Source: Pirellulales bacterium (lineage in GTDB: Bacteria > Planctomycetota > Planctomycetia > Pirellulales > UBA1268). Taken from it: 64,000 bases of DNA. Position numbers and translations under genes: made by a program. The notes beneath the pieces were generated by a model. That model ran no database searches, was not told where the DNA came from, and saw only the letters and a program-made list of their open reading frames with translations. Shown piece by piece: positions 7,530 to 23,589 of this stretch; the stretch's first letter is position 1, and each line of letters begins with the position of its first letter. Location: NCBI GenBank assembly GCA_016779265.1, contig JADHNY010000004.1:5584-69583 (forward strand), in the 5' to 3' direction.

Positions 7530-10045
7530 CAGCCTTGCTCGCTCGTGTCGTTTCCTGTGACCGATGGTGTGGGCACCAGCTCCAGCGTGTGCACCGGTGG
7601 CCCAGGCAGGAACGGCGTGGCTTGTCCCTTCGCCCATGCCTCGTGCCCATCGCGGTAGTGCGGTGAGAGGAAATGCCCACATTGCCCACCAGGCATGTGG
7701 AAAAATCCCTCGTCTTCTCGACCAGGGGAGACCACCATTCGCTGTGACGCACCAGCCCAGGGCAGCTGCACCCGCGGCATATTGGCATCACCCGGCAACG
7801 GCCGTGGCGACATATCAAGCCAGTCTGCGAGCAGCGGAATTGCAGCCCCGAGCGGATGCTGAACACGGCTGACGTTCCACTCTCCCCAGGTTCGTCCTGA
7901 GAGCGGTCCATCGTCAGCAAGGTCGGCGAGCGTGGCGTCGAGTGCGGAGAGCAGCAGGTCGTCCCAGTTCTCAAACTGTGGTGCAAGCAGATGTGGTGGC
8001 TGCTCTTTCAGCAGCGTCCAGAGCGGTGTTTCAAACCGACGGAAGTCTCGCAGGTAGTCAGCGCGGGGATCGGCGAACTCGATTTCGACCACGAGTGGCC
8101 GCAGGGCTGCCGCCGCAACCTCCAGTCGCCATTCACGAACGATGCGATAGCCAGCAGACTCGACTGAGGCCTTACCACCCCAGTCTTCGACGAGCCGACG
8201 TGCTTCACGTCGCTGCTGATCGCCTGCGACGGCATCTGCAGAGAGCGTGTCGAGCAACAGCTCACGCCAGCGTGTCAGAAACACCGCGCGATCATCGAGC
8301 TGCACCGCAAGCATGTCGGCAGGGGTCGCCGAGTCGATGGCAAGCAAGGCATCGCGAATCTGCCCCTGCCTTCCCCCCACGTCCTGGCCTTCATCGCCAA
8401 TCACACCATGCCCGGAAGCAGGCACCACTCGGGCATTCGCAGACCAGAGACGCCCCGTCTGCGGATCCACCACCGTTGGACGCTCATCTGCGGGAAGCCA
8501 CCCGTCCCAGCGGGCAGTGCCATCAGCCCAGGAGGTGGGGCGTCGACCATCAAAGCCAACCCGCCTGGGGATTCGCCCGATGATCGTCCAGCCAACGCGT
8601 CCCTCCTGATCCACGCAGACGAGGTTCTGGCAGGGCACGCCCACCTCACCCGCAAGGGCTAAGGCCTCATCGACAGTCTCTATCTCTTCAAACCGCACAA
8701 GGTTGAGGTTCGCTCCCTCCGGATCGTGTGCGGTCCACCGCACGACCCGCAGTCGACCGGCATGGTCGCGATCCACGACCGGTCCCCAGATGGTCTCACG
8801 CACCTCGAGCAGCACGGGCTCGCCCCCTGCCACCTCGATCGTTTCCTGGTGATGCGAGAAGGTCTTCCAGCCGTCTGGCGTGAGATAGCGGTCGGCATCA
8901 GCCGGATCGGTCTCAAGCAGCACGAGGTCGAGCCAGTCGCCTTCGCTGTTGGTGAATGCCCAGGCAATCTTGCCGGTGCTTCCCGCCACAACGCAGGGGG
9001 TTCCGGGCAAGGTGACCCCGACCACCCGACGATCACCTTCTACAGACGGCCAGTGCATCGCCGCCCGGTACCAGATGCTCGGTACTCCCAGCCGCAGGTG
9101 CATGTCGCCGGCCAACAGGGCATGTCCATCAGCGGTGTGTGAGCCAGCAACAGCCCAGTTGTTGCTGCCATAGACCACCTCAGGTGGCGTGTGTCTATCC
9201 AGAAAGCGATCCCAGTATCCAGGCTGGGCCACGACGGATTCGCTGACGAGCAGGTCACGGACAGGCTGGCTGCGGAGATCGACCACCTGACGAGTCGGCA
9301 GATCCGCAGACTCAAGCGGCGGCCCTTCCAGCGGTGCGTCGAGCGGCGACCCGGATGGCAGGAGAAATGCCACCAGGTCTAGCGGCAGCAGGTCATGCAT
9401 CAAGCCACGGACCGACTCATGCCCGCCTGTCTCGTTCTGTAGGTCGAGAAACATCGAGTAGACCGTCAGTATCGTGTCGGCCGGCAGCCAGGGCTGCGGC
9501 GACACCCGCAGAGCCAGATACTCCGGCGGCACCACGGCAAGTGCCGAAAGCCCGGCATTGACCCCGGCTGTGTACGCCTCCAGCAGCTGACGATCTTCGG
9601 CAGGCAGTCGCTCCACGACGCCATTCGCCCTGTAGCGAAAGCGATGCAGGCGGAGCTGCCGGTCTAGACCGACCGCCGCGGCCCCGACCAGTGCTGACAG
9701 TTCTCCAGCACTCTGCCGACGCAGCAGGTCCATCTGAAAGAATCGATCCTGGGCATGCACAAAGCCCAGCCCACGTGCGACATCGAGCCGGTTCTCAGCT
9801 CGCAGTGTGGGCACACCACGGGCATCTCGCTCCACCGTCACAGCAGCCGCGAGTCCCTCCAGCGGCTGCCTGCCGTCGAGGATGGGCAGACTCGCTCTGA
9901 GCTTCCACAGGCCCACCGCAAGAAACACACAGCCAACAACTGCAACGCCCCCTGCCACAGCAAAGAAGCGACGAGACCAAGACCATCTCCGCGACTTCTC
10001 AGCCGCAGCAGTCACTGATTCGTGAGATTCCGACACCTGGTTCAT
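7529..10045 (-). CDS. Penicillin acylase family (Ntn-hydrolase, peptidase S45)
   Basis: VTVERDARGVP; GLGFVHAQDRFFQMDLLRR; autocleavage motif GSNNWAV; DMHL; N-terminal TM anchor. Start ATG 10045. Confidence 0.9.
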   Translation of the reverse strand: MNQVSESHESVTAAAEKSRRWSWSRRFFAVAGGVAVVGCVFLAVGLWKLRASLPILDGRQPLEGLAAAVTVERDARGVPTLRAENRLDVARGLGFVHAQDRFFQMDLLRRQSAGELSALVGAAAVGLDRQLRLHRFRYRANGVVERLPAEDRQLLEAYTAGVNAGLSALAVVPPEYLALRVSPQPWLPADTILTVYSMFLDLQNETGGHESVRGLMHDLLPLDLVAFLLPSGSPLDAPLEGPPLESADLPTRQVVDLRSQPVRDLLVSESVVAQPGYWDRFLDRHTPPEVVYGSNNWAVAGSHTADGHALLAGDMHLRLGVPSIWYRAAMHWPSVEGDRRVVGVTLPGTPCVVAGSTGKIAWAFTNSEGDWLDLVLLETDPADADRYLTPDGWKTFSHHQETIEVAGGEPVLLEVRETIWGPVVDRDHAGRLRVVRWTAHDPEGANLNLVRFEEIETVDEALALAGEVGVPCQNLVCVDQEGRVGWTIIGRIPRRVGFDGRRPTSWADGTARWDGWLPADERPTVVDPQTGRLWSANARVVPASGHGVIGDEGQDVGGRQGQIRDALLAIDSATPADMLAVQLDDRAVFLTRWRELLLDTLSADAVAGDQQRREARRLVEDWGGKASVESAGYRIVREWRLEVAAAALRPLVVEIEFADPRADYLRDFRRFETPLWTLLKEQPPHLLAPQFENWDDLLLSALDATLADLADDGPLSGRTWGEWNVSRVQHPLGAAIPLLADWLDMSPRPLPGDANMPRVQLPWAGASQRMVVSPGREDEGFFHMPGGQCGHFLSPHYRDGHEAWAKGQATPFLPGPPVHTLELVPTPSVTGNDTSEQG

Positions 10046-10156: not shown

Positions 10157-13100
10157 TTAGTACTTCGAGAAGAACAGGTTCCGGGCTTCGACGTCCGCGG
10201 CAACGTTCTGGAAGCCCCAACGGTTTGCCCGCATCAGTCCTTCTGTGACGTTGGCAACCCAGAGCGCCCCGCGAGCGAGTTCTGCCGACGTCGCTCGTCG
10301 TCCGAGAAGTTCATCGCGACCGTCACCATCAGCGTCACCAGCGATGATGCCAGTCCAGATCACGTTGGGGTTCCAGTAACCCACCAGCGTATTGGTCCGA
10401 GTTCCACTCGTTCCATCGGAGACCAGCCCCCACCACTGCCCGTTTGCCGCGCGGGCAAGAATCTCTGCCTGCCCGTCGCCGTTAAAGTCACCAACGGTCG
10501 TGCTAGACCAGGTGGTATTGCCCCACACCCCCAACACCGTCGTTGTCAAACCGATGGTGTCGGTATTGGCAGTCGCCACATACCAGACATTCGCAGCACT
10601 TCGTCCGGCAATATCGGTCCTGCCGTCACCATTGAAGTCAGCAGCGACGATATCGTCGGTGAAGTTCAGAGTCGGGCTCCAGAATCCGAGAACCTCTGAC
10701 GTCCAGCCTCGCCCCTCTTGGCCAAACAATCCAAACCACTGTCCAGTGGTGGCCAGGCCAGCGATGTCTGTATTACCGTCACCGTTGAAGTCGCCGGTCT
10801 GAATCGACCTAAACGTGAAACTGGTGAGCCAGCCACCAACACGCAGGTTGGTAAAGCCGACCTCGCCGCCCGTCTTCGCAAAGCCCACCCACCAGGCGCC
10901 GTTGCTGGCCATGCCTGCAACATCCGTCGCTCCATCACCGTTGAAGTCGCCCGTGACGATGTTTTCAATGCCGAGCGTAGGCCGCCAATAGGTCATCAAC
11001 ACAGGTGCCGTACCGCCCAGACCATCACCACCGGTGCCGTTGCCGTTGTTGAGCGAGGCCCACCACTGACCAATCGTTGTCCGCCCTGCCACATCCATCA
11101 GTCCGTCGCCGTTGAAATCCCCCTCAACAACAGACGTCCAATCGACACGGTCATTGATGGCCCACGCGGCGTAGGTCGTCTGGGTGAAACTCGTACCATT
11201 GCTGGTGTTGAGCACCCAATACCCGTTTGAGGTGAAGGTCATCACCGAATCAAAGGTGGGCGGATCGACAGAGTTGTCGGTCACCGTGAATGTGAACGAC
11301 CGCTCGACCGACCCATTGTCGGCCGCTGTAGAAAGATTCCCATCGAGCCCGCCATCTTCGACGGTGACGGTGATCGTTGCTGAGCCAGCGAGCAGCGGGA
11401 CGAGACGCACGGTGCCGTCTGTATCGGGCGATGCGTAGACGACGTCTGGCTGGCCGACCACTGCCTGATCGCTGCTGGTCACCGTCACTCGCAGCGGCTG
11501 GGAATCACCACTGCCAGCGGTGATGCCTGTCAACGCCACGGTCTGCTCACCATCACTGAGATCCACGGTAATATTGCTGATGGCATCGAGTGTCGGCTGT
11601 CGGTTGTACCGCAGCACCTCAACGCTCACCACGTCGCTGGCATCCGAAAGCGTGGCACGACTCTCGAAGACACGGACCTGGCCAGACTGGAAGCCCGCGT
11701 CAGAACTCCCGATAGCTCCGACGGCCACAAAGTTGCCCGAGGCAGAAACGGCCACCGACATACCTGCGCTGTTGTCTGCAGCTTCCCCATCGATGTCTGC
11801 ATTGAGCCGCACCCAGGCTTCCCCAGTTGCGTCCCAGCGATACACCCTGGCATGCCCGGCCCCGTTTACTCCAGGCCCGGCGTTCTTATCCGCTCCGACC
11901 ACGACCACGCTGGCATCAGCCGAAAGAGCAACCGACACGCCGGCGTTGTCAAACATCGCCTCGCCATCAAGGTCCTGCCCTTGCTGAACCCACTGCGAGC
12001 TTCCACTGTCGAACGAATAGACCCGAACATGGCCGGCTCCGAAGCCGTTCCCCGCGTTCCCAGGGCCTCCAACGGCCATTGTCAGGCCATCCGCAGAGAG
12101 AGACACACTGCCACCGAAGTTGTCCGCATTCGCTTCGCCAGCGACAGCCGCTCCCACGAGATCCCAGGCTGACGTGTTCGCGTTCCAGCTGAACACGCGG
12201 ACCTGGCCACGTGCAGCCCCCGACCGTGGCTCACCGACGGCGACGACGTTGCCATCGGAGGCGAGTGACACGCTTGTGCCAGCACCATTGCCTTCCGCCA
12301 GCCCGTTGATATCGCCACCGAGTTGCTGCCAGGCACCGGCCCCAGCATTCCAGCGAAAGATCCTGGCATGCCCTGCATCGGGCCCCACTTCATCGTTGCC
12401 AAACGCACCAATCGCCAGAGTGGTGGCGTCGCCAGAAAGCGAGACCGCGGAGCCAGCGCGATCCAACGAGGCTTCACCATTGATCGGCTCACCGACCTGC
12501 ACCCACGACTCAAGGGATGCATTCCAGTTGTAGACACGCACCTGCCCGGCATCGCGACCGCCGTCATCATTCGCCGGCGCCCCCACCGCAATCGTCAGGC
12601 CATCGGATGACATTGAGACGGCTGTGCCCGCTGCGTCGGAAGCAGCCACTCCAGCAATGCCGGCTCCCATGGGCTGCCAGACGCCAGTGGCGGCGTCGTA
12701 GCGAGAGACCATGACCACACCAGCTCCATCTCCAGCGGCATCGTTGCCAGTCGCTCCAATCGCAACAATCTGTCCATCGGCAGACATGGCGACTGCGCGT
12801 CCGGCGTAGTCCTGGGCGGCTGCGCCTGCCAGTGTGTTCCCAACCTGCTGCCAGCTCGTCCCCTGATCCCAACCGCGCACGGTGATCACGTCAGAAATGC
12901 TGCCAGTCCAGGCGGCGGCAGGCTGGAAATACAGCCGAGTGCTCGCGTCGGCGACCAGCAGCAGTGGGCTCGCCTCAGAGACACCGCTCGCCTGCGTCCA
13001 GGTATTACCACCGTCTTGCGAAGACCACAGCGTTCCCCCGTCGAGGTTGGCCCCCACCACGGCAACCCCTGGCGCATCACCGTCGGCATCCTGAAAGTTC

Positions 13101-13723
13101 GAGAGAGCTGCATCAGTGTCAACGAGCGTCGACACGAGCACGCCGACCGCGCCCGTCGGCGGAGGAGCATCCTCTGTCACAGTCCCCAGCGTCAACGCAG
13201 CAGAAGGATCGAGCACAGGAAGGTCATTGATCGCGAGCACCGTGACATCAAAGGCCTGTGTTGTCGTCTGATTATCGCCAGAGGTCGCAAGATCACCGTC
13301 ATCACCACCATCCTCAACCTGCACCGTGACCGTCACCGTTCCGCTAGCGTCGGCAACGGGCGTGAAGGTCATCACACCGAAGGACTTAGGTGATGTGTAG
13401 CTCACCGTGGGGTCAGGCAGCACGCTGGCGTCGCTGCTACTGGCTGTGACTCGCAACGGCTGTGACTCACCAGAACCTGCTGAGATGCCTTGCAGGAACA
13501 CTGTCTGCTCACTCGCATCTTCGTCGATCGTGATATCGGCGATTGCATCGAGCGTGGGAGCCACGCTGGCGACATCTGCGGCAAGCATCGCCCGCGACTC
13601 CAGACGCTCCAAGACGGTGCCCAATGACAGCCCTCGAAAGGATGCGGTCTGCGTCTGCGTGCCACAACGGCGACGAGTGCGACTCTCACCACGTGCCTTC
13701 GACGTCCTGCCTGGCCTCGCCAT
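10157..13723 (-). CDS. Large surface/adhesin-like protein: planctomycete extracellular motif, two cadherin/Ig-like domains, 7-blade FG-GAP propeller, C-terminal GDFNGDG (VCBS/FG-GAP) repeats
   Basis: LERLESRAMLA; two copies of PTLDAI...GI.AGSG.SQPLRVT; 7 copies of G.AVS.S.DG..VA.GA; 6 copies of GDFNGDG-type motifs. Confidence 0.85.
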   Translation of the reverse strand: MARPGRTSKARGESRTRRRCGTQTQTASFRGLSLGTVLERLESRAMLAADVASVAPTLDAIADITIDEDASEQTVFLQGISAGSGESQPLRVTASSSDASVLPDPTVSYTSPKSFGVMTFTPVADASGTVTVTVQVEDGGDDGDLATSGDNQTTTQAFDVTVLAINDLPVLDPSAALTLGTVTEDAPPPTGAVGVLVSTLVDTDAALSNFQDADGDAPGVAVVGANLDGGTLWSSQDGGNTWTQASGVSEASPLLLVADASTRLYFQPAAAWTGSISDVITVRGWDQGTSWQQVGNTLAGAAAQDYAGRAVAMSADGQIVAIGATGNDAAGDGAGVVMVSRYDAATGVWQPMGAGIAGVAASDAAGTAVSMSSDGLTIAVGAPANDDGGRDAGQVRVYNWNASLESWVQVGEPINGEASLDRAGSAVSLSGDATTLAIGAFGNDEVGPDAGHARIFRWNAGAGAWQQLGGDINGLAEGNGAGTSVSLASDGNVVAVGEPRSGAARGQVRVFSWNANTSAWDLVGAAVAGEANADNFGGSVSLSADGLTMAVGGPGNAGNGFGAGHVRVYSFDSGSSQWVQQGQDLDGEAMFDNAGVSVALSADASVVVVGADKNAGPGVNGAGHARVYRWDATGEAWVRLNADIDGEAADNSAGMSVAVSASGNFVAVGAIGSSDAGFQSGQVRVFESRATLSDASDVVSVEVLRYNRQPTLDAISNITVDLSDGEQTVALTGITAGSGDSQPLRVTVTSSDQAVVGQPDVVYASPDTDGTVRLVPLLAGSATITVTVEDGGLDGNLSTAADNGSVERSFTFTVTDNSVDPPTFDSVMTFTSNGYWVLNTSNGTSFTQTTYAAWAINDRVDWTSVVEGDFNGDGLMDVAGRTTIGQWWASLNNGNGTGGDGLGGTAPVLMTYWRPTLGIENIVTGDFNGDGATDVAGMASNGAWWVGFAKTGGEVGFTNLRVGGWLTSFTFRSIQTGDFNGDGNTDIAGLATTGQWFGLFGQEGRGWTSEVLGFWSPTLNFTDDIVAADFNGDGRTDIAGRSAANVWYVATANTDTIGLTTTVLGVWGNTTWSSTTVGDFNGDGQAEILARAANGQWWGLVSDGTSGTRTNTLVGYWNPNVIWTGIIAGDADGDGRDELLGRRATSAELARGALWVANVTEGLMRANRWGFQNVAADVEARNLFFSKY

Positions 13724-13897: not shown

Positions 13898-16021
13898 TCA
13901 GGGATTTACGACAGGAAAGACAAACTTGTTCAGCGGTTCACCGGTGACCGTGTGGTGCCGGACGACCAGCGTCGAGCCCCCCTGTTCCCCAGAAACTCGT
14001 ACCTCACCAGACAGAAAGCCGCCAGCCACCCGCAGAAAACGATGCTTGGGTCGCGTATCCCCCTCCCGCCAGCCCAGTTCGTGGTCTGCGCTTCCCGGCC
14101 CGCAGCCAAACTCCCACAGGCCAGTCGTCTCATCGACCGACGCATACTGCCAGTGGCGATCACCGCAGCAGACGATCACGCCCGGGATAGCGGACAGTTG
14201 GGCGCGAAGCTCCTCACCTTCCCAGGCAAAGATGTCGTTGGCGTGGTTGTCCTTCTTGTTCGCACGGTCTGGCCCCACGATCGGCGTTGGACTAACCACC
14301 AGCTTGAAGCGGGCATCTGAGGCCTGCAGCGTGTCGAACAGCCAGGCCTTCTGATCCACCCCGAGAATCGTCTTGTCAGGCCCATCGGGCATCGTGTGAG
14401 GACTGCGGTAGTCTCGGCCTTCGAGCACCCACAACTGCAGGTCACGCCCCCACCGCACCGTGGCATATCGCGGTGAGCGAGCGGGGAACTGCTCCTCATT
14501 AAACAGTTTCACTCCTTCCGCAAACGTCACCGAGCCGTAGGTCTGTCCGGGCCAACAGTCATTCATCAGCGTGTCATGGTCGTCTTTGATGAAGTAGGTC
14601 GACGTCGTGCTGTAGAACTGACGATTGGCCGGAAGCGCGAACAGCCGTCCCCACTTAAAACGCATCAGCTCCTTGGTCAACGCCCACGGATCCGGCTTGT
14701 CGTAATACTCAATATCGCCGGCATGGACGATGAACGCGGGATCGATCTCCCGCATCGCCGTGTAGATCTTGTGACCACGCAGTCCGTCGTCACGGCGAAT
14801 GAAGTCGTGACAGGTGGTGATGCAGAATCGCAGCGGCGTCGTCGCCTTCGCCGCAAAGGCCGTCCGGAATCCCCCCAAAGCAACGGCTGACGGTTCCCCC
14901 TCAGACGTCTGGGCTTCAATGACCGTGAGATACCGAGCGCCAGGCTTGAGGTCCTCAAGCTTCCACTGCGCTGTGTAGTCGTCGTCTCCGTTTGTCACCA
15001 CCCAGTCCGTCTGCCGCATCTGCTTGCGTTGATGCTCAGGGTAGTAGGAGAGTCGCACTCGGCCCGGAGCTCCAGGACAGGCTCCAAGCATGTCATCAAG
15101 CGATGCTCCCTCCGGCAGCTGTGGACTGAGGAGTTTGGCGGGATCGGTTTCGCGAGCCAGCTGCCTGGCCTCTTTCACCGAGAGGCTGACAAACGGCAGG
15201 CCATCACCCCGCATCTGCTTGTTTTTTGTCGTCCGCGTCCAGATCACGATGCTCGTCTGGTCAGCCCAGCTGTTCCGACTGCCGTTGGCCAGAAATGGAC
15301 CGGTTTCGACCATGGGATCCGCCGCAGGTGGATCGTGCGGCACAAACTCAAAATCCTTGTAGGTCACACGCCCACCATGATCGGTGAGCATCACACGATC
15401 ACCAGCCCGCGGCCGGCCAAAGTCTTCCGCGTCGAAGAACTTGCTCAGTGCGACCGTCGTGTCCCAGGCTGGCCCCGCGAGGTCTGCGGCTGTCACGAGC
15501 TGGCCGTTGAGGTAGTGCTCCACCCGCGGCCCTACGGCCACCACCTTTGAACTGTTCCATTCTCCCGGTGAATGGAGGACTTTGTCTGCTACAGGCGCCA
15601 CGAGGTCGTAGATCGCCGCCGTCGATCCGAGCGATGTGTCGCCGGGGGGACTGTCGATGATCTGATACTCAAGGCCGATCGTTCGCGACATCGCTCTCTC
15701 GTGAAATGTCCGCACGCGATACTTCAGCCCACTGTTGACCCCTTTCTCAATCTTCCACTTCCAGCTCAGCTCGAAGTGCGGTGGCAATGGCTTGCTCACG
15801 ATATTGCCACCCTGCCGAGGCGTGACCAGCGACACTTCGCCGTTGGCAAACTGCCAGCCCTCCGAAACCTGTCCGCCGGCGGGCGTCTCCCAAAACTCGC
15901 GCTGGCTCCAGGCGGCAGCAGACAAGTCCTCCGCCGTTGCGATCGCGGCTGTCCATCCGCCGATCACACATACCAACAGCAGCACCAGCCCACGCAGAAC
16001 TTTGGTTGCCCCCTGCAGCAT
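13898..16021 (-). CDS. DUF1080 (3-keto-disaccharide hydrolase-like) domain fused to PhoD-like alkaline phosphatase
   Basis: N-terminal FELSWKWK...NSGLKY, LEYQIID, GEWNSSKV...VEHYLNG, LTDHG (DUF1080). C-terminal HAGDIEYYD, KDDHD, GRDYRS, GDRHWQY (PhoD). Start ATG 16021 gives a signal peptide. Confidence 0.85.
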   Translation of the reverse strand: MLQGATKVLRGLVLLLVCVIGGWTAAIATAEDLSAAAWSQREFWETPAGGQVSEGWQFANGEVSLVTPRQGGNIVSKPLPPHFELSWKWKIEKGVNSGLKYRVRTFHERAMSRTIGLEYQIIDSPPGDTSLGSTAAIYDLVAPVADKVLHSPGEWNSSKVVAVGPRVEHYLNGQLVTAADLAGPAWDTTVALSKFFDAEDFGRPRAGDRVMLTDHGGRVTYKDFEFVPHDPPAADPMVETGPFLANGSRNSWADQTSIVIWTRTTKNKQMRGDGLPFVSLSVKEARQLARETDPAKLLSPQLPEGASLDDMLGACPGAPGRVRLSYYPEHQRKQMRQTDWVVTNGDDDYTAQWKLEDLKPGARYLTVIEAQTSEGEPSAVALGGFRTAFAAKATTPLRFCITTCHDFIRRDDGLRGHKIYTAMREIDPAFIVHAGDIEYYDKPDPWALTKELMRFKWGRLFALPANRQFYSTTSTYFIKDDHDTLMNDCWPGQTYGSVTFAEGVKLFNEEQFPARSPRYATVRWGRDLQLWVLEGRDYRSPHTMPDGPDKTILGVDQKAWLFDTLQASDARFKLVVSPTPIVGPDRANKKDNHANDIFAWEGEELRAQLSAIPGVIVCCGDRHWQYASVDETTGLWEFGCGPGSADHELGWREGDTRPKHRFLRVAGGFLSGEVRVSGEQGGSTLVVRHHTVTGEPLNKFVFPVVNP

Positions 16022-16200
16022 CGAAGAGCCTCCGCAAGACACTCGTTTCTCGTACCCCTCACCGCGGGCAACACAGTACCATGTCTGCAGCGGTTTCGGG
16101 CAGGAGCCAGCGATGGTCTGTCGTCCGCCACCGAGTTCCGAGATTTCCGGTGCCAGCTGTGACACGTTGGCCATCTTTTCATCACCGCGACAGCCGCACG

Positions 16201-17361
16201 ATGACCGACGACGTCGACACATTCCATGGCGGTGTCTTCAGTGACGAACTGGCAGGCGGTCGCGCTGGTGCTGAGTTGCAGTTCGCCACAGACAGCCTCG
16301 TGGCAACGGTGCCCCCGGGGCGTGCGTCGGCGAGCGGCCGTGACTTTGCGATTCGCTACCGCGACTGTCAGGTCGACATTGGCGGCTACAACGGCCGCAT
16401 GATCTTCTGCCGCACAGCAGACCGCAGCCTGACGATTTTCTGTGACACACCTGGCTTTGCCCGAGCACTCGCAGGGGCAGCAGGCGGCCTGCTCGACGAA
16501 CAGCTCGACGCAACCGCCGCCACGCAGCGACAGGCACACCGTCGCGGCTGGCTCGCGGGCCTGCTACTGGTCGCCGTCACTGCGGGCTTTCTCCTGGCCT
16601 GCTTCTACGGCATCCGCCTCGCTGCTGACGCCTCGATCACCGCCGTCCCGATGGCCGTCGATCGTCAGATTGGTCAACAGGCCTACCGCCTGATGGACCA
16701 TGACGGTCCAGAGGTCGACGACGAGGTGATCACCAATGCCGTCTCAGGCATTGTCGCCCGGCTGAAACCTCACGCGGCTGCTGAGGGCCTGCAGTTTGAT
16801 GTGCACATCATCGATGCTGACATCTGCAACGCCTTCTGCCTCCCAGGGGGCACGATCGTTCTCTACACCGGACTTCTGCGGCGAGCGGGCTCTGCCGAAG
16901 AGGTTGCCGGCGTGCTTGCCCACGAGATGGCCCACGCATCACTGCGTCACGGACTGCGGCAGGTCACACAGTCTGTCGGCATCGCAGCAGCAGTCAATCT
17001 GCTCATCGGCAACGTCGAGGGCCTCGTGGTAGCAGGAGCCGAGATTTTCAAACTCGCCACAATCAACAGCTACAGCCGACAGCAGGAAACAGACGCAGAC
17101 ACAGAGGGCGTGCGGATGCTCCACGCAGCGGGAATCAACCCACTCTCCCTCGCTCGCTTTTTCGAGACGATGCAACGCGAGGCAGGCGATCTCCCAGCAG
17201 GCCTGACCTGGCTGAGCACTCACCCTGACCATGCCGCTCGCATCGCTGCCGTCCGAGATCAGGTAGGCAGACTTGCCCAGCAGGAGTATGTTCCCTTCGA
17301 GATCGACTGGGAACGTGTACGTACTGCCGCGAGCAGTGATGAGTTCACAGCGGGCGAGTAG
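16201..17361 (+). CDS. M48 family zinc metallopeptidase, membrane-anchored
   Basis: NAFCLPGG, AHEMAH (HExxH), YSRQQETDAD, LSTHPD; one TM segment after an N-terminal cytoplasmic domain. Start ATG 16201. Confidence 0.9.
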   Translation: MTDDVDTFHGGVFSDELAGGRAGAELQFATDSLVATVPPGRASASGRDFAIRYRDCQVDIGGYNGRMIFCRTADRSLTIFCDTPGFARALAGAAGGLLDEQLDATAATQRQAHRRGWLAGLLLVAVTAGFLLACFYGIRLAADASITAVPMAVDRQIGQQAYRLMDHDGPEVDDEVITNAVSGIVARLKPHAAAEGLQFDVHIIDADICNAFCLPGGTIVLYTGLLRRAGSAEEVAGVLAHEMAHASLRHGLRQVTQSVGIAAAVNLLIGNVEGLVVAGAEIFKLATINSYSRQQETDADTEGVRMLHAAGINPLSLARFFETMQREAGDLPAGLTWLSTHPDHAARIAAVRDQVGRLAQQEYVPFEIDWERVRTAASSDEFTAGE

Positions 17362-17411
17362 GAAGCCCACGCAGGCAGCACGGGCAACGAACCAACATCA
17401 GTGAGCTCTGA

Positions 17412-17452
17412 GTCTTTCGGCAACGCACACTGTCTTTCGGCAAACCACACTG
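17412..17452 (+). repeat. Tandem 20-bp direct repeat upstream of the AIM24 genes
   Basis: gtctttcggcaacgcacact / gtctttcggcaaaccacact: 18 of 20 identical, directly abutting. Confidence 0.85.
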
Positions 17453-17470
17453 GGACGCGAGAGGTACGAA

Positions 17471-18127
17471 ATGCAACACGTCGTCCGCAATCGACCGTCC
17501 TTCGCCAACATCCATCTGCAGCTTCAGCGGGGCGACCGCATCATCGCTGAGGCAGACGCCATGGCGAGCATGAGTTCGACGATCGACATGCGAACTCGGT
17601 TTAGCGGCGGACCGGTGCAAGGCCTGCTGCGACGGGGGTTTGGCAGCGAGTCGATGTTTGTGAATGAGTTCTCAACAGCCTCGGAAGGTGAGCTCGTGCT
17701 GACACAGCCCTTTCCTGGTGACATCGAATGCCTCGAACTCGAGCGGACCAGCCTATTCCTTCAGCCTGGAGCCTTTATCGCCTGTGAGCCCGGAGTCCGC
17801 CTCGGTTTGGGTTGGGCTGGGCTGCGGATGGCGATCGCACGCGAGGGTCTCTTTCGCCTGCGTGTCAGCGGTCGAGGCAAGGTCTGGTTTGGCGCCTACG
17901 GCGGCATCTTCAGCCGTGAGGTCACGGACGAATACATTGTCGACACCGGCCATCTCGTCGCCTACGAGCCGACGATTGATGTCCGCATTGGCATGGCCGG
18001 GGGCCTGTTCTCAAGCATCTTTAGCCAAGAAGGCCTCGTCACACGCGTGCGGGGCCCTGGCCGGATCTATCTCCAGTCTCGCTCGTTTGGCGGACTTGCC
18101 GCCTGGGCCAACGCACACCTCTGGTAA
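17471..18127 (+). CDS. AIM24 / TIGR00266 (DUF124) family protein, copy 1
   Basis: RPSFANIHLQL..GD.IIAEADAMASM; GSESMFVNEF; VDTGHLVAYE; SQEGLV; YLQSR. Confidence 0.92.
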   Translation: MQHVVRNRPSFANIHLQLQRGDRIIAEADAMASMSSTIDMRTRFSGGPVQGLLRRGFGSESMFVNEFSTASEGELVLTQPFPGDIECLELERTSLFLQPGAFIACEPGVRLGLGWAGLRMAIAREGLFRLRVSGRGKVWFGAYGGIFSREVTDEYIVDTGHLVAYEPTIDVRIGMAGGLFSSIFSQEGLVTRVRGPGRIYLQSRSFGGLAAWANAHLW

Positions 18128-18131
18128 TCCC

Positions 18132-18818
18132 ATGCGTCATGACATCGTGTCACGTCCCGCGGCAGCGGTCGCACGTCTCACCTTTGACGAAGGCGAATCC
18201 CTGACCTGTGAGGTCGGTGGCATGATTGCCATGTCGCCAGACTTCACGGTGGAAACCACCACCCGCAAGAAACGTGGCAGCGGCGGCGGCCTGCTCAAGG
18301 GCCTCAAACGGATGCTCGCTGGCGAGAGTCTGTTTCTCAACCATTTCACCGCCACGAAGCCAGACCAGACGCTGCTGGTCGGCCCGCGGCTTCTCGGTGA
18401 CGTGATTCACCGCCGGCTGCAGGGAGGCTCGATGATTGTGCAGGGCAGCAGCTGGCTGGCGTCCTCCACCGCCATCGACATCGATGCCACCTGGCAGGGA
18501 TTTGGCAAAGCGATCTTCAGCGGCGAGGGCTTGTTCTGGCTGAAATGCAGCGGAGAGGGTGACCTCTTCCTCAGCAGCTTTGGTGCCATTTACGAGGTGG
18601 AAGTCGATGGCGACTATGTCGTCGACACCGGACACATCGTCGCCTTTGACGACACGCTGCAGTTCGCCATTCGAAAAGCAGGGGCGAGCTGGATCGGCAG
18701 CTTCCTTGGCGGCGAAGGGCTCGTCTGCCGGTTCTCAGGGAAAGGCCGGCTGCTGTGCCAGTCGCACAATCCCCCGAGCTTCGGCGCCTTGCTCGGCCCA
18801 AAACTCAAGCCGCGGTAA
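18132..18818 (+). CDS. AIM24 / TIGR00266 family protein, copy 2
   Basis: Start ATG 18132 (MRHDIVSRP); GESLFLNHF; GEGLFWLKCSG.G; VDTGHIVAFD; GGEGLVCRFSG.G.L.CQS. Confidence 0.92.
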   Translation: MRHDIVSRPAAAVARLTFDEGESLTCEVGGMIAMSPDFTVETTTRKKRGSGGGLLKGLKRMLAGESLFLNHFTATKPDQTLLVGPRLLGDVIHRRLQGGSMIVQGSSWLASSTAIDIDATWQGFGKAIFSGEGLFWLKCSGEGDLFLSSFGAIYEVEVDGDYVVDTGHIVAFDDTLQFAIRKAGASWIGSFLGGEGLVCRFSGKGRLLCQSHNPPSFGALLGPKLKPR

Positions 18819-18843
18819 CCCCCTCTGCCGGGAGCAATGCATC

Positions 18844-19770
18844 ATGATCGAGTTTGCCTGTGACCAGTGCGGCACCACCTTTCGCGTGGCAGCGGAGCAT
18901 GCTGGAAAAACAGCAAAGTGCAAGCAGTGTGGCGGTGCGATTCAGATCCCAGCGGCCTCCGCGACCGCAGCGGCGGCCTCCCCAACTCAGTCAAGCACTG
19001 CTCCGTCTGGCACTGCTCCGCCAGATACCGATCAGCCCGACACCAACGCAACCTCCGCAGTGATTCGGGGATCGGGCGACCTCTTCAGCTATGAGATCAC
19101 CCAGCGTCCTGACTTCGCCATGATCACCCTGACGCTGCAAGAGGGTGGCCGTGTGTTCGCCGAGCCTGCTGCGATGGCCAGCATGTCGCCCGCCGTCAGC
19201 CTCAAGGCAGGCTTCAAAGGTGGGCTCCGCAAAACGCTTGGCCGTGCGTTCGGCGGCGAGAGTATGATCGTCAACACGTTCACGGCAGACCGAGGGCCTG
19301 GTGAGGTCGTGTTTGCACCTGGTCCAGCCGGAGATGCAGCACACTACCGGCTCGATGGCGGCAGCCTGCTGATGCAGCGAGGAGCGTTTGTCTGCCACGG
19401 CCCAGGTGTTGAGATTTCAGGCAAGTGGCAAGGAGCCAAGAGTTTCTTCGGCGGCGAGGGGCTGGTCTTGCTCAAAGCGAGTGGCCAGGGGGATCTTTTC
19501 TTCAACTCATACGGAGCCATCCTCCCAGTTGACGTGAAAGACGAATACATCGTCGACACCGGCTATATCGTGGCCTTCGAAGACACGCTCGACTATCGCG
19601 TATCTGTGCTTCCCGGCCTCCGCGCGGGCAGCAAACTCAAGACGTTCTTCTTCGGTGGTGAAGGGCTCGTCTGTCGGTTCCGTGGCCAAGGTCGGCTCTG
19701 GGTACAGACGCGGCACGTGCAGTCATTCCTCTCGTGGGTGCATCCCTTCCGGCCCTCTCGCCGCAACTAG
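18844..19770 (+). CDS. AIM24 / TIGR00266 family protein, copy 3, with N-terminal zinc ribbon
   Basis: MIEFACDQCG...KCKQCG (two CxxC), an Ala/Pro/Thr linker, then GGESMIVNTF, VDTGYIVAFE, GGEGLVCRF. Confidence 0.9.
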   Translation: MIEFACDQCGTTFRVAAEHAGKTAKCKQCGGAIQIPAASATAAAASPTQSSTAPSGTAPPDTDQPDTNATSAVIRGSGDLFSYEITQRPDFAMITLTLQEGGRVFAEPAAMASMSPAVSLKAGFKGGLRKTLGRAFGGESMIVNTFTADRGPGEVVFAPGPAGDAAHYRLDGGSLLMQRGAFVCHGPGVEISGKWQGAKSFFGGEGLVLLKASGQGDLFFNSYGAILPVDVKDEYIVDTGYIVAFEDTLDYRVSVLPGLRAGSKLKTFFFGGEGLVCRFRGQGRLWVQTRHVQSFLSWVHPFRPSRRN

Positions 19771-19859: not shown

Positions 19860-20801
19860 TCACGCGGGATCTTTGCCAGCAGAGTCAGCCCGGGCTTCGG
19901 CGAGCCGCTGCCGACATGTAACGGTGCGGGGATGATCGGGACCATGCACTTTTTCATGCAGCCGCAGCGCCCGCTCATAGAGTGGCTTCGCCTCGTCGCG
20001 GCGATCCTGCAGCCAGAACAGGTTGGCGAGGCTGTTGACCGTCACTGCGATATTGCCGTGGTCAGAACCAAAGGCGGTTTCAAACACCGTCAACGCTCTG
20101 CGAAAAAGATCTTCCGCATCGTCATAGCGTCGTTGATGGCTGTAGAGCGTGGCCAGGTTGCTCATGCTTGTGGCAGTACGGGGATGCGTCTGTCCTAAGA
20201 TCCGCTCACAGATAGCGAGGGCTCGCTCAAACAGCGGCTCGGCCTTGTCGTACTGACGCTGCGTGTCGTAGTGCAGTGCGAGGTTGTTGAGGCTCGTTGC
20301 TGTATCCGGATGGCTTGGCCCCAGCACCTTCTCATACGTTGCGAGGGCGCGTTGATAGAGCCCTTCGGCCTTGTCGTAGCGGCCACGTGCGTCATAGAGC
20401 AGGGCGAGGTTGTTCAGGCATGTGGCTGTGTCTGGGTGATCGGGCCCGACGAGCCGCTCATAGGTCGCCAGCCCCCGCTGGTAAGCAGCTTCGGCCTCAT
20501 CGTAGTTCCCCTGCCGATAGCAGGCATGGGCGAGATTGACGAGACTCGTCGCTGTGTCCGGGTGTTCTTCTCCGAGCTGCTGTTCGCGGATCGCCAACGC
20601 CTCGCGATACAGCGTTGTCGCCTCTCCATAGCGTGCCATCGCATCGTAGAGCACCGCGAGATCGTTCATCGCCCGAGCGGTCTCTGCGTGATCGCGACCA
20701 TGCTCGGCAGCCGCTTCGTCGACCGCCGCTTCAGCAAGCGGCACAGCCTCGGCATAACTGCCAAGCGCGTAGAGCTTTTCGATCTGCCGCCGCTTGCTCA
20801 C
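19860..20801 (-). CDS. Tetratricopeptide repeat protein (42-aa kinesin-light-chain-type repeats)
   Basis: About 7 repeats of A..Y.RALA..E..LG..HP.TA.SLNNLA..Y. Likely GTG start at 20801 with AAGGA 8 nt upstream. Confidence 0.9.
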   Translation of the reverse strand: MSKRRQIEKLYALGSYAEAVPLAEAAVDEAAAEHGRDHAETARAMNDLAVLYDAMARYGEATTLYREALAIREQQLGEEHPDTATSLVNLAHACYRQGNYDEAEAAYQRGLATYERLVGPDHPDTATCLNNLALLYDARGRYDKAEGLYQRALATYEKVLGPSHPDTATSLNNLALHYDTQRQYDKAEPLFERALAICERILGQTHPRTATSMSNLATLYSHQRRYDDAEDLFRRALTVFETAFGSDHGNIAVTVNSLANLFWLQDRRDEAKPLYERALRLHEKVHGPDHPRTVTCRQRLAEARADSAGKDPA

Positions 20802-20962
20802 AGTAAGAATCCTTGCAGGCCACACCTGACTCCGCTGAACACCAAGACACCACCCCCTTTTTTGAGGGAAAAACCATCCTACGAACGAACGCCGCCGGAC
20901 TCAACAGCACCCGGGCGAATCGTTTGAAAGGCGTAGACTCGGGGCATGAAAGGGCATCCACG

Positions 20963-21577
20963 ATGACAGTGACTTCCAGCGGCATGCTTGTACTCGTAAC
21001 CAGCCTGGCGAGTGCTGTGGCGGTGTTCTCGCTGATCGCTGCCTTCAACCGGCTTGTCCGTCGCCGCAACCTGGTTGCTGAGGGCAAAAGCGGAATCGAT
21101 GTGCAGCTCAAACGCCGACACGAACTGATCCCCAACCTGGTGGCCTGCGTCCAGGGCTACACCGGTTTCGAACGGTCGTTGCTTGAAGACCTCACTCGCC
21201 TTCGTGAGGGAGCCGACCAGGCCTCGTCGATGGCCGATGTGAACAACCGTGAAACAGCGCTCAACCGTGGCCTGAGTTCCTTTTTTGCTCGCGTCGAAGC
21301 GTATCCTGAACTCAAGGCAAATACCTCGTTTGCAGAGCTGTCCAGGCAGCTCGTCGACACCGAGGATGCGCTGCAGTATTCCCGTCGTTACTACAACGGT
21401 GCGGTCCGAGACCTGAACATCGCTGTTGAAGCATTTCCGTCGAACCTCGTTGCCGGTGTGTTCGGCTTTCAAGTAGCCGACTACTTTCAGGTCGACTCCA
21501 TCGCAGAACGAGCAGCTCCCGCCGTCAGCCTCTCGACGCCAGCGTCCCCTGTTTCCTCCACCCCGCCAGGCCCATGA
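20963..21577 (+). CDS. lemA: LemA family protein
   Basis: N-terminal TM; FNRLVRRRN; [16 protein letters not shown]; EAYPELKAN; [12 protein letters not shown]; FPSNLVAG. Confidence 0.95.
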
Positions 21578-23589
21578 CTCTCCGAATCACACCAACTCGC
21601 CGCCCCTGCGATCGCTTTGCTTTACTCATCTGCGTCGGAGCCTTGGTTATCGGCAGCCTGCTCTGCCACCGGTCAGCTCTTGCCGTCGAGCGGATCACCA
21701 GCTTTGACTGCCGCGTCGTCGTGGGTGAGGAAGGCATGCTCTCGATCACGGAAACGATCACGGTCGTCGCCGAGGGCAACAAGATCAAGCACGGTATCTA
21801 CCGCGACATTCCGATCCGTTATTCCGATGGCGGGCTCGGGCTGGGCACCAACATCCCTTTCACAATCACTGCGATCGAGTACGACGGCAAACCGGCCACG
21901 TATCGCGCCGAAAACCGCGACACGACCAAGCGGATCTACATCGGTGACAAAGACACGACGGTGCCGCACGGAACCCACACCTACATAATCTCCTACGACA
22001 CACGGCAGCTGAGATTCTTTGACGACCACGATGAGGTCTACTGGAATGCCACCGGCAACGCCTGGGATTTTCCGATCGAGCAGGCCACAGCTCGCGTGCT
22101 CCTCCCCGAAGGTGTTCCACAAGAGGCTGTCCAGGCAGAGGCCTACCTCGGCCCCCTGGGATCAAAGAACCAGGCCGGCGTTGAGATCGCTCCACTCGAC
22201 GATGCTGTTGGAACGCAGTTTTCCACATCGCAGCAGCTTGAGCCCAGGTCTGGCATGACCATCGTGGTCCAGTTTCCCAAGGGCTTCGTCACCGAACTCT
22301 CCGCAGCCACACGGATCTTGGAAGATCCTTATGTGCCGATCGGCATTGGTGGATTGGCGATTGTGGCCCTCTACTTCGTGGCCGCCTGGGTACTTGTTGG
22401 CCGCGATCCGGCCACGGGGGTTGTGATCCCGCTCTTCGCCCCTCCAGACAATCTCAGTCCTGCCGCCTGCCGGTTCATCAGTCGCATGGGCTTTGATAAG
22501 AGCTGCTTCTCAGTCGCCCTGCTTTCGCTCGGCTCCTACGGCACGCTTGTCATTGAAGACAAGAAAGGAAAGTACACGCTCGAACGCGCCGGTGAACTGC
22601 CAGACCACGCATCTGCGGGAGAGAAGAAGGTCTTCGACGCTCTGCTTCGCAGCCGTAAGAAGCTCGAAGTCAAACAGACGTACCACGCCACCTTCTCAAA
22701 GGCGATCTCTGACCTCAACGATGCGCTCGTTCGCGAGTTTGAGGGCACACTCTTCCATCGCAACCGCGTCTGGTTTTTTGGTGGCGTGGTGATCGCGTTT
22801 GTCACGCTGATCATCACAGTTTTTCTTGGTGGCGGCGCGGAAGCCTCACTGCAAGCCGGGTTCCTCACTCTCTGGCTCTCCTTCTGGTCAATCGCGGTCG
22901 TCGCGTTGGTGCATGGCACGCTCACCGCCTGGCGATCGGTGTTCACCAGCAGCGGGGCGGGCGAGAAAGCCATCGCCCTGCGAAAGTCCCTCTTCACCAC
23001 CGCATTTGCCACGCCCTTCGTCGCTGGCAAGTTCATCGCTCTCTACATGCTGGCTCAGAGCACTTCGCTGTGGATGATTCCGATCGTGCTCGGCATCGTC
23101 TCGATCGTGGCCCTTTTCTACGAACTGATTAAGGCTCCAACGGCTACCGGGCGAGCAGTGATGGACCGCATCGACGGCTTTCGGATGTATCTCGAAACGG
23201 CCGAGCAGGAACGGCTTGAGGCAGTCACCGAGCAGGCGTTTGCTGCGGAGGCTGCCTCGCCAGAACCACGGAGCCTTCAGCTCTTCGAGCGGTTTCTGCC
23301 ATACGCGGTTGCCCTCGGTGTGGCGAATGCTTGGGCAGCCAAGTTCCAAGACCTGATCGCCGCGGCCAGCATCCACGACAGCGATGGCAGCACCCAGCAC
23401 TACCATCCCGCCTGGTACCACGGCTCAGGCTGGGCTCCGACGAATGTCGGTGTTGCAGCTGCCGGACTCGGTGCCGCGATGACTTCGGCTGTTGCGGCGG
23501 CTGCGACCAGTCCATCATCCGGAAGCGGTGGCGGCGGTGGGGGCTCCTCGGGCGGGGGCGGGGGCGGTGGGGGTGGCGGGGGCTGGTGA
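21574..23589 (+). CDS. DUF2207 membrane protein with Gly-rich C-terminal tail
   Basis: ERITSFD; HGIYRDIP; YWNATGNAW; [13 protein letters not shown]; tail [26 protein letters not shown] overlap with lemA. Confidence 0.92.

Follow-up and report, generated by a model that had tools for sequence, protein, structure and literature searches.

A four-gene cassette of a PH-TM-M48 metallopeptidase and three AIM24 paralogues recurs across eight phyla of diderm bacteria

In a 64,000-nucleotide window of a Pirellulales genome (Planctomycetota; GenBank assembly GCA_016779265.1, contig JADHNY010000004.1, positions 5,584 to 69,583), four open reading frames (ORFs) on the forward strand encode an M48 peptidase followed by three proteins of the AIM24/TIGR00266 family. 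An earlier note on this DNA, made from the sequence alone, had described an operon of a protease and three AIM24 genes with gaps of 4 and 25 bp. The coordinates and both gaps were borne out exactly, with 4 bp between AIM24-1 and AIM24-2 and 25 bp between AIM24-2 and AIM24-3; the M48 gene and AIM24-1, a gap that the note does not give, are 109 bp apart (Table 1). The start codon of the M48 gene is backed by the aligned N termini of 27 orthologues. The AIM24 proteins are divergent paralogues, as had been claimed, with pairwise identities of 31 to 42% and profile scores far above both curated cutoffs (25.7 bits for PF01987 and 96.6 bits for TIGR00266). The source genome, a 3.9-Mb assembly that is roughly 95% complete, carries no AIM24 genes beyond these three.

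Table 1. Genes of the cassette and the features within them, in window positions (TM, transmembrane; pLDDT, predicted local distance difference test)
Feature	Position	Strand	Description
M48 peptidase gene (PH-TM-M48 metallopeptidase)	16201..17361	+	386 aa; Pfam Peptidase_M48 E=9e-31
PH-like N-terminal domain (residues 8-93), predicted cytoplasmic	16222..16479	+	Model, Foldseek, conserved residues
Single transmembrane helix (~residues 116-137)	16546..16611	+	Strongest hydrophobic window in 28/28 orthologues
M48 catalytic domain (residues 181-353)	16741..17259	+	Pfam match; HEMAH (residues 241-245) at 16921-16935
M48-AIM24-1 intergenic spacer	17362..17470	+	109 bp
20-bp tandem duplication in spacer	17412-17452		Two abutting copies GTCTTTCGGCAA(C/A)(G/C)CACACT, ~18 bp before AIM24-1 start codon
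AIM24-1, clade A1	17471..18127	+	218 aa; PF01987 193 bits, TIGR00266 193 bits; positional clade 1
AIM24-2, clade A2	18132..18818	+	228 aa; PF01987 219 bits, TIGR00266 190 bits; positional clade 2
AIM24-3, clade A3	18844..19770	+	308 aa; PF01987 205 bits, TIGR00266 221 bits
AIM24-3 N-terminal zinc ribbon CxxC-x16-CxxC	18844-18948	+	C6-x2-C9...C26-x2-C29; pLDDT ~95, four short strands
AIM24-3 disordered linker (residues 41-68)	Between ribbon and core	+	pLDDT <50
AIM24-3 AIM24 core	19090-19713	+	pLDDT mostly >90

A scan of one genome per species retrieved 583 relatives of AIM24-1, and the best 80 loci were kept for locus counts. These loci fall into eight diderm phyla: Planctomycetota (27), Pseudomonadota (19), Verrucomicrobiota (11), Bacteroidota (10), Myxococcota (5), Cyanobacteriota (5), Lentisphaerota (2), and Thermodesulfobacteriota (1). 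The tandem AIM24 trio is found in 78 of them and is cut by contig ends in the other 2, and a full-length gene for the PH-TM-M48 protein lies immediately upstream of the trio in 63 of the 80. Neighborhood conservation was the first check that the earlier note had set beforehand, and the four-gene order extends far beyond the relatives of the source organism. Its recurrence in 63 of the best 80 loci, across eight phyla, excludes chance. Spacing is tight as well: the gap between the M48 gene and A1 is 0 to 20 bp in most nonplanctomycete loci, and the median gaps between successive AIM24 genes across loci are 15 and 14 bp. Among the remaining loci, two from cyanobacteria have the protease gene downstream, encoding no PH-like domain; two more have it nearby, and in four the contig ends too early to be informative for the protease, leaving 76 informative loci. 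A fifth conserved gene was ruled out by all-against-all clustering of the flanking ORFs, in which no other family occurs in more than 7 of the 80 loci; with no further recurrent flanking family, the cassette consists of exactly four genes. We consider it highly probable that these four genes form one real cofunctional module.

The cassette also recurs amid differing surroundings. Among 40 relatives, the order M48, A1, A2, A3 is present in four genomes of the same genus and in one genome from another genus of the family, where the flanks of the cassette differ. Look-ups of three distant M48 homologues placed the same four genes amid unrelated neighbors in a Rhodopirellula-like genome, in Fuerstiella, and in a Planctomycetaceae metagenome-assembled genome. 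In the same-genus genome G003, the cassette region and its flanks are all missing from a 92%-complete assembly, which hence offers no presence/absence contrast. A full-length orthologue occurs in 14 of 151 evenly sampled Planctomycetota (~9%), a sample with 141 genomes of >=90% completeness and <=5% contamination, and the module is thus accessory and patchy in this phylum. Horizontal transfer is probably part of the reason for its spread. The earlier note had found the operon attractive for a cell with an invaginated cytoplasmic membrane. Such a link to planctomycete membrane architecture is not supported and should be dropped: few sampled Planctomycetota have the cassette, and it is found in eight phyla, among them Verrucomicrobiota (Akkermansia), Bacteroidota, Myxococcota, and the phylum of the Beta- and Gammaproteobacteria, making it nonspecific to this organism.

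Patchiness of this kind, both in the phylum and among close relatives, would also suit a defense or abortive-infection module, in which the AIM24 proteins act as toxin-like, membrane-active effectors that the protease restrains or activates. High identity across phyla, with Myxococcota copies 57 to 65% identical to planctomycete AIM24-1, suggests horizontal transfer and points the same way, as does one locus in which a transposase-like gene stands in the place of the protease. However, none of the four proteins has a match in PADLOC at E<=0.01, no defense-island or mobile-element neighbor recurs in the 80 loci, and the region is syntenic inside the genus. The active site of the protease is, moreover, predicted to face the periplasm and the AIM24 proteins to be cytoplasmic. 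We regard a defense function as very improbable.

The first gene product had been described as a membrane-anchored HExxH protease, and both the motif and one predicted transmembrane helix are present. Its PF01435 score is 107.6 bits against a cutoff of 20.3, and all 28 orthologues share H241, E242, H245, E296, D300, H341, and P342. The HExxH and downstream Glu zinc site is therefore intact, and from these invariant residues we predict that the protease should be active. An AlphaFold2 model built from the 28 orthologues (mean pLDDT, 89.9) gives the N-terminal domain seven strands and a C-terminal helix at pLDDT of ~90 to 97. Foldseek matches this domain to eukaryotic PH domains with a probability of 0.93 to 1.0 and template modeling scores on the target [TM(target)] of 0.5 to 0.58, at E values of only 0.009 to 0.1. 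It is covered by no Pfam model, and the Pfam PH and bPH models gave no match to the N-terminal domain in the six proteins scanned. Residues G20, G61, and G62 are invariant across phyla, and the domain is homologous between phyla.

The transmembrane segment sits inside a long helix (residues 99 to 148) of the model. Across the orthologues, the 15 residues before it hold a mean of 4.8 Lys plus Arg, versus 1.6 after it, and no signal peptide was found in the protease. Because of this charge bias and the absence of a signal peptide, we infer an N-in, C-out topology, with the PH-like domain predicted to be cytoplasmic and the M48 domain periplasmic. The catalytic part is closest by Foldseek to the soluble M48 peptidase 3C37 (E=2e-12; TM(target), 0.80) and to BepA (6AIT; E=1e-8). 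The protease is no equivalog of BepA, LoiP, or HtpX: the BepA equivalog NF052400 scores 93.4 bits against a cutoff of 570, in a match limited to the protease domain, the LoiP equivalog scores 55 bits against 365, and the HtpX models score 17 to 34 bits against 245 to 422. The profile scan found no TPR domain in the protease, and the chain stops ~30 residues past the M48 domain. These features define an uncharacterized subfamily of envelope M48 proteases with a predicted cytoplasmic PH-like domain.

The AIM24 fold consists of three TRAP-like beta-sandwich repeats, and a flat-faced homotrimer has been modeled for a plant AIM24 protein (PMC6677890). The family has only two solved members, and AIM24-2 shows relatedness to both, 1PG6 (phmmer E=9e-20) and 1YOX (E=8e-17). 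The AlphaFold2 model of AIM24-3 (mean pLDDT, 79.9) matches the same two structures (1PG6, Foldseek E=8e-17 and TM(target) of 0.77; 1YOX, TM(target) of 0.77 to 0.80), with no further significant relative in the PDB up to April 2026. None of the three proteins has a signal peptide. Each repeat holds one GGE(S/G)(L/F) motif. All three motifs are invariant or almost invariant in A3 orthologues, two of them are present in all three paralogues, and every one is within or next to one of three loops of the AIM24-3 model that have low confidence and are probably mobile. The N-terminal ribbon of AIM24-3 is a candidate for the MJ0042/FmdB type, with two CxxC knuckles and profile scores under the Pfam and NCBIfam cutoffs (21.1 versus 34.4 and 17.4 versus 20.9). 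Zn_ribbon_8, Zn_ribbon_5, and Zn_ribbon_4 likewise stay below their Pfam cutoffs on it, and the ribbon of the L025 orthologue reaches 30.1 against 30.3.

A tree of AIM24 domains sorts the cassette genes by position into three clades, one each for the first, second, and third gene, with Shimodaira-Hasegawa approximate likelihood ratio test supports of 99, 93, and 95, after relabeling of one permuted cyanobacterial locus. Three separate positional clades mean that the triplication is ancient, and A1, A2, and A3 are, as judged by their sequences, nonredundant paralogues. Between 82 and 89 positions per clade are conserved at >=80%, the identical residue is found in all three clades at only 29 positions, and 50 to 60 conserved positions per clade are clade specific. 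Lengths are fixed in A1 (median, 220 aa) and A2 (median, 227 aa), and N-terminal additions are confined to A3, in 30 of 77 loci. What is added differs by lineage: some of the Planctomycetota have a zinc ribbon, Verrucomicrobiota have GYF_2, Beta- and Gammaproteobacteria have an L7/L12-C-like domain, and A3 is without an addition elsewhere. In Akkermansia muciniphila, a genetically tractable gut commensal, the cassette is complete, and its AIM24-3 carries GYF_2 (L084, L100); transposon data already published for this species may contain a phenotype.

Contigs from salt-marsh metatranscriptomes run from the M48 gene through the 109-bp spacer into AIM24-1 and AIM24-2, and further contigs connect AIM24-2 with the 3' end of AIM24-3, such that all junctions are bridged. 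This fits a single transcript. Within the cassette, including the spacer, no Rfam family, sigma-70-like promoter, or internal terminator was found. Part of the unusual length of the spacer is explained by the tandem repeat. As a regulatory site, the repeat was rejected, because same-genus genomes have shorter spacers without it, and on the same ground it appears to be a duplication of recent, local origin. One "metatranscriptome" contig of 8.5 kb in run X25 spans window positions 15000 to 18562 with genes of both strands at even depth, which suggests carryover of genomic DNA into RNA libraries.

We propose that the product of the first gene is a zinc metalloprotease that crosses the inner membrane once, with its PH-like domain in the cytoplasm and its BepA/3C37-like M48 domain in the periplasm. 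A1, A2, and A3 would be cytoplasmic and not interchangeable, each with three TRAP-like beta-sandwich repeats, and would assemble 1:1:1, most likely into a trimer resembling the modeled plant homotrimer. Such a hetero-oligomer predicts a fixed gene order, equal dosage, conservation that differs between subunits, and a single specialized subunit, as seen here; these features are not proof of it, and we think it likely that the three proteins do associate. The assembly would lie at the inner membrane face, seated on the PH-like domain of the protease, while the N-terminal module of A3, on its flexible linker, may recruit a lineage-specific partner. Since the catalytic domain is predicted to be on the periplasmic side and the AIM24 proteins on the cytoplasmic side, the PH-like domain is the only plausible point of contact; docking there is nonetheless a tentative step. 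The assembly could then link proteolysis in the periplasm to a state of the cytoplasm or membrane and serve as an accessory device for envelope quality control or stress signaling, a role that we put forward more tentatively still. Taken as a whole, a cytoplasmic AIM24 hetero-oligomer that joins the protease through the PH-like domain and acts in envelope quality control or signaling is the best explanation we can offer, and we give it slightly less than an even chance. Its most specific form, an obligate A1-A2-A3 heterotrimeric ring of nine TRAP-like repeats docked on the PH-like domain of a dedicated M48 protease, with the A3 arm as adaptor, is doubtful.

Several observations weigh against this explanation. 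By prediction, the membrane separates the M48 catalytic domain from the AIM24 proteins. When 1.84 billion representatives were searched exhaustively with a profile, the top 150 matches included no AIM24-AIM24, PH-AIM24, or M48-AIM24 fusion; two or three fused AIM24 domains would outscore single-domain proteins, so the complex has no Rosetta-stone support. No M48 gene adjoins the AIM24 trio in about 9 of the 76 informative loci, and the patchy occurrence in Planctomycetota implies that the module is dispensable. In two genomes, G011 (L021, positions 5718 to 7743) and G020 (L022), a highly divergent trio on long branches keeps an A1-A2-A3-like order and has no M48 gene next to it, nor was an orthologue of the PH-M48 protein found in either genome. 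The cyanobacterial cassette M48 proteins lack the PH-like domain. The 109-bp spacer could hold an internal promoter, and one of the "RNA" contigs also crosses the divergent gene upstream of the cassette, making DNA carryover possible and the RNA evidence weak.

Much of this would be expected if the four products served the same pathway without forming a complex, as coregulated stress components, the protease acting in the periplasm and the AIM24 proteins acting in the cytoplasm with no physical contact between them. The differing predicted compartments, the lack of fusion proteins among the top matches, the trios without M48 in ~10% of loci and in G011 and G020, and the absence of the PH-like domain from the cyanobacterial M48 all sit well with that arrangement. 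Against it stand the very tight adjacency of M48 and A1 in most loci outside the Planctomycetota and a PH-like domain that is invariantly kept on this M48 subfamily in seven phyla. The link between the two families has also been seen independently of the trio: in G014 (L019, positions 5946 to 7760) and G015 (L020), a single AIM24 gene outside the three clades is followed 18 bp downstream by a gene for an M48 protein of 372 aa, in which a transmembrane helix accompanies a divergent N-terminal domain of its own. Therefore, whether by origin or by persistence, the pairing of M48 with AIM24 does not depend on the triplication. We judge a shared pathway without contact to be unlikely and favor the docked hetero-oligomer over it.

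A different division of labor is suggested by the repeats themselves. The AIM24 hetero-oligomer could sense a small molecule or ion through its TRAP-like repeats and GGE(S/G)(L/F) loops and report to, or gate, the protease. In keeping with this are the TRAP-like repeat fold (PMC6677890), the conservation of GGE(S/G)L motifs at three probably mobile loops, and a resemblance to proposed TerD-AIM24 stress modules. The earlier note had placed the AIM24 family in ter-type stress neighborhoods, and for the family at large this stands: a TerD linkage is described in the literature (PMC5822837), and the profile search turned up natural TerD-AIM24 fusions (447 and 483 aa) next to a TPR-AIM24 fusion (539 aa) and zinc-ribbon- and GYF_2-AIM24 fusions. 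Though from a different AIM24 lineage, the TerD fusions lend Rosetta-stone support to the TerD-AIM24 link that has been reported. For this locus the claim did not carry over, as there is no TerD anywhere in the genome and no ter family recurs beside the cassette in the 80 loci. That absence also tells against a sensor, together with the facts that no ligand is known for any AIM24 protein and that the neighbors of the cassette in the same loci include no recurrent metabolic or transport gene. We therefore hold ligand sensing to be improbable, more so than a shared pathway without contact, and return to the hetero-oligomer docked on the protease as the explanation to be preferred.

Divergent from the M48 gene, positions 13898 to 16021 on the reverse strand encode a secreted fusion of a 3-keto-disaccharide hydrolase (DUF1080 type) and a PhoD-like phosphatase. 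The longest ORF of this fusion reaches position 16222 and would overlap the M48 start; its true start is likely the signal-peptide Met near position 16021. Convergent to AIM24-3, a TPR_12/TPR_10 (kinesin-light-chain-like) repeat protein is encoded at 19860 to 20825 on the reverse strand. This gene is present in G004 and absent from the same position in G001 and L030, indicating a recent insertion between the cassette and LemA. Beyond it, at 20813 to 23589, genes for LemA (254 aa) and a DUF2207 protein (671 aa, ending in a poly-Gly/Ser tail) overlap by 4 bp. This pair is syntenic with the cassette inside the genus only, lying directly 3' of AIM24-3 in G001 and L030, and has no linkage to it in other lineages. 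In Fuerstiella (L026, positions 10918 to 13374), and in this lineage only, a BlaI/BlaR1-type pair of a Penicillinase_R repressor and an M56 signal-transducing peptidase lies directly 3' of the cassette.

The components of the cassette belong to known families, M48 and AIM24, and the four-gene module itself is real, strongly conserved, and uncharacterized. No published description of it was found in the full-text literature searched, a body of text that does not cover the 2012 treatment of Ter systems by Anantharaman, Iyer, and Aravind. The earlier note had called bacterial AIM24 functionally undefined, and the literature agrees, with a 2019 paper stating that nothing was known about any bacterial AIM24 protein (PMC6677890). 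The fixed pairing with a specific PH-TM-M48 protease is a first concrete functional context for these proteins, and its presence in eight phyla, including the gut commensal Akkermansia, makes a bacterial AIM24 role directly testable. Were the heterotrimeric ring to prove right, it would be an undescribed, widespread transmembrane proteolytic machine of diderm bacteria. It might then also offer a prokaryotic precedent for the eukaryotic AIM24 subunits of membrane quality control, in plant endoplasmic reticulum-associated degradation (ERAD) and in the fungal MICOS (the organizing system of mitochondrial contact sites and cristae) and supercomplexes.

Eukaryotic members of the family affect ERAD and the organization of the mitochondrial inner membrane. 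Arabidopsis PAWH1 and PAWH2 are AIM24 subunits of the membrane Hrd1 ERAD complex (PMC6677890, PMC10203443), and yeast Aim24 stabilizes MICOS and respiratory supercomplexes. The link to MICOS that the earlier note had given for the yeast homologue is well founded, as Aim24 interacts with MICOS (PMC4802753). All of these proteins are AIM24-domain stabilizing subunits at a membrane, in a quality-control or organizing complex, and by analogy alone the cassette may work along parallel lines. They differ from it in being eukaryotic and in having a ubiquitin ligase or MICOS as partner, with no protease partner described, and the PAWH proteins have a C-terminal transmembrane helix of their own. A link between Aim24 and Oma1, the mitochondrial M48 protease, stays a speculation, since the two are only comentioned in reviews, where no partnership is described.

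Among bacterial AIM24 proteins, PA3696 (1YOX) and SpyM3_0169 (1PG6) share family and fold with those of the cassette. They are stand-alone structural-genomics genes of unknown function, whereas the cassette has three diverged paralogues fixed beside a protease, the third with an added N-terminal module. TerD-AIM24 stress pairs likewise have the AIM24 family in common with the cassette, yet in a different lineage and in single copy, and the cassette has neither TerD nor ter neighbors. On the protease side, Escherichia coli BepA (YfgC; 6AIT, 6SAR) and Geobacter sulfurreducens Q74D82 (3C37) share the M48 fold, the HExxH...E site, the hydrophobic "lid" helices after HExxH, and the periplasmic location that we predict here. 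Unlike BepA, the cassette protease lacks a C-terminal TPR domain and a signal peptide and has a PH-like domain and a transmembrane anchor, and BepA has no AIM24 partner.

Operons that pair a membrane-anchored protease with an oligomeric, membrane-proximal regulator or organizer include FtsH-HflK/C and NfeD/STOPP-stomatin. The cassette likewise joins a membrane-anchored protease to a partner that is, in our proposal, oligomeric. The families are unrelated, being AAA+/M41 or S49 proteases and SPFH scaffolds in those systems. There, protease and scaffold face the same compartment, whereas in the cassette the membrane is predicted to come between the M48 domain and the AIM24 proteins.

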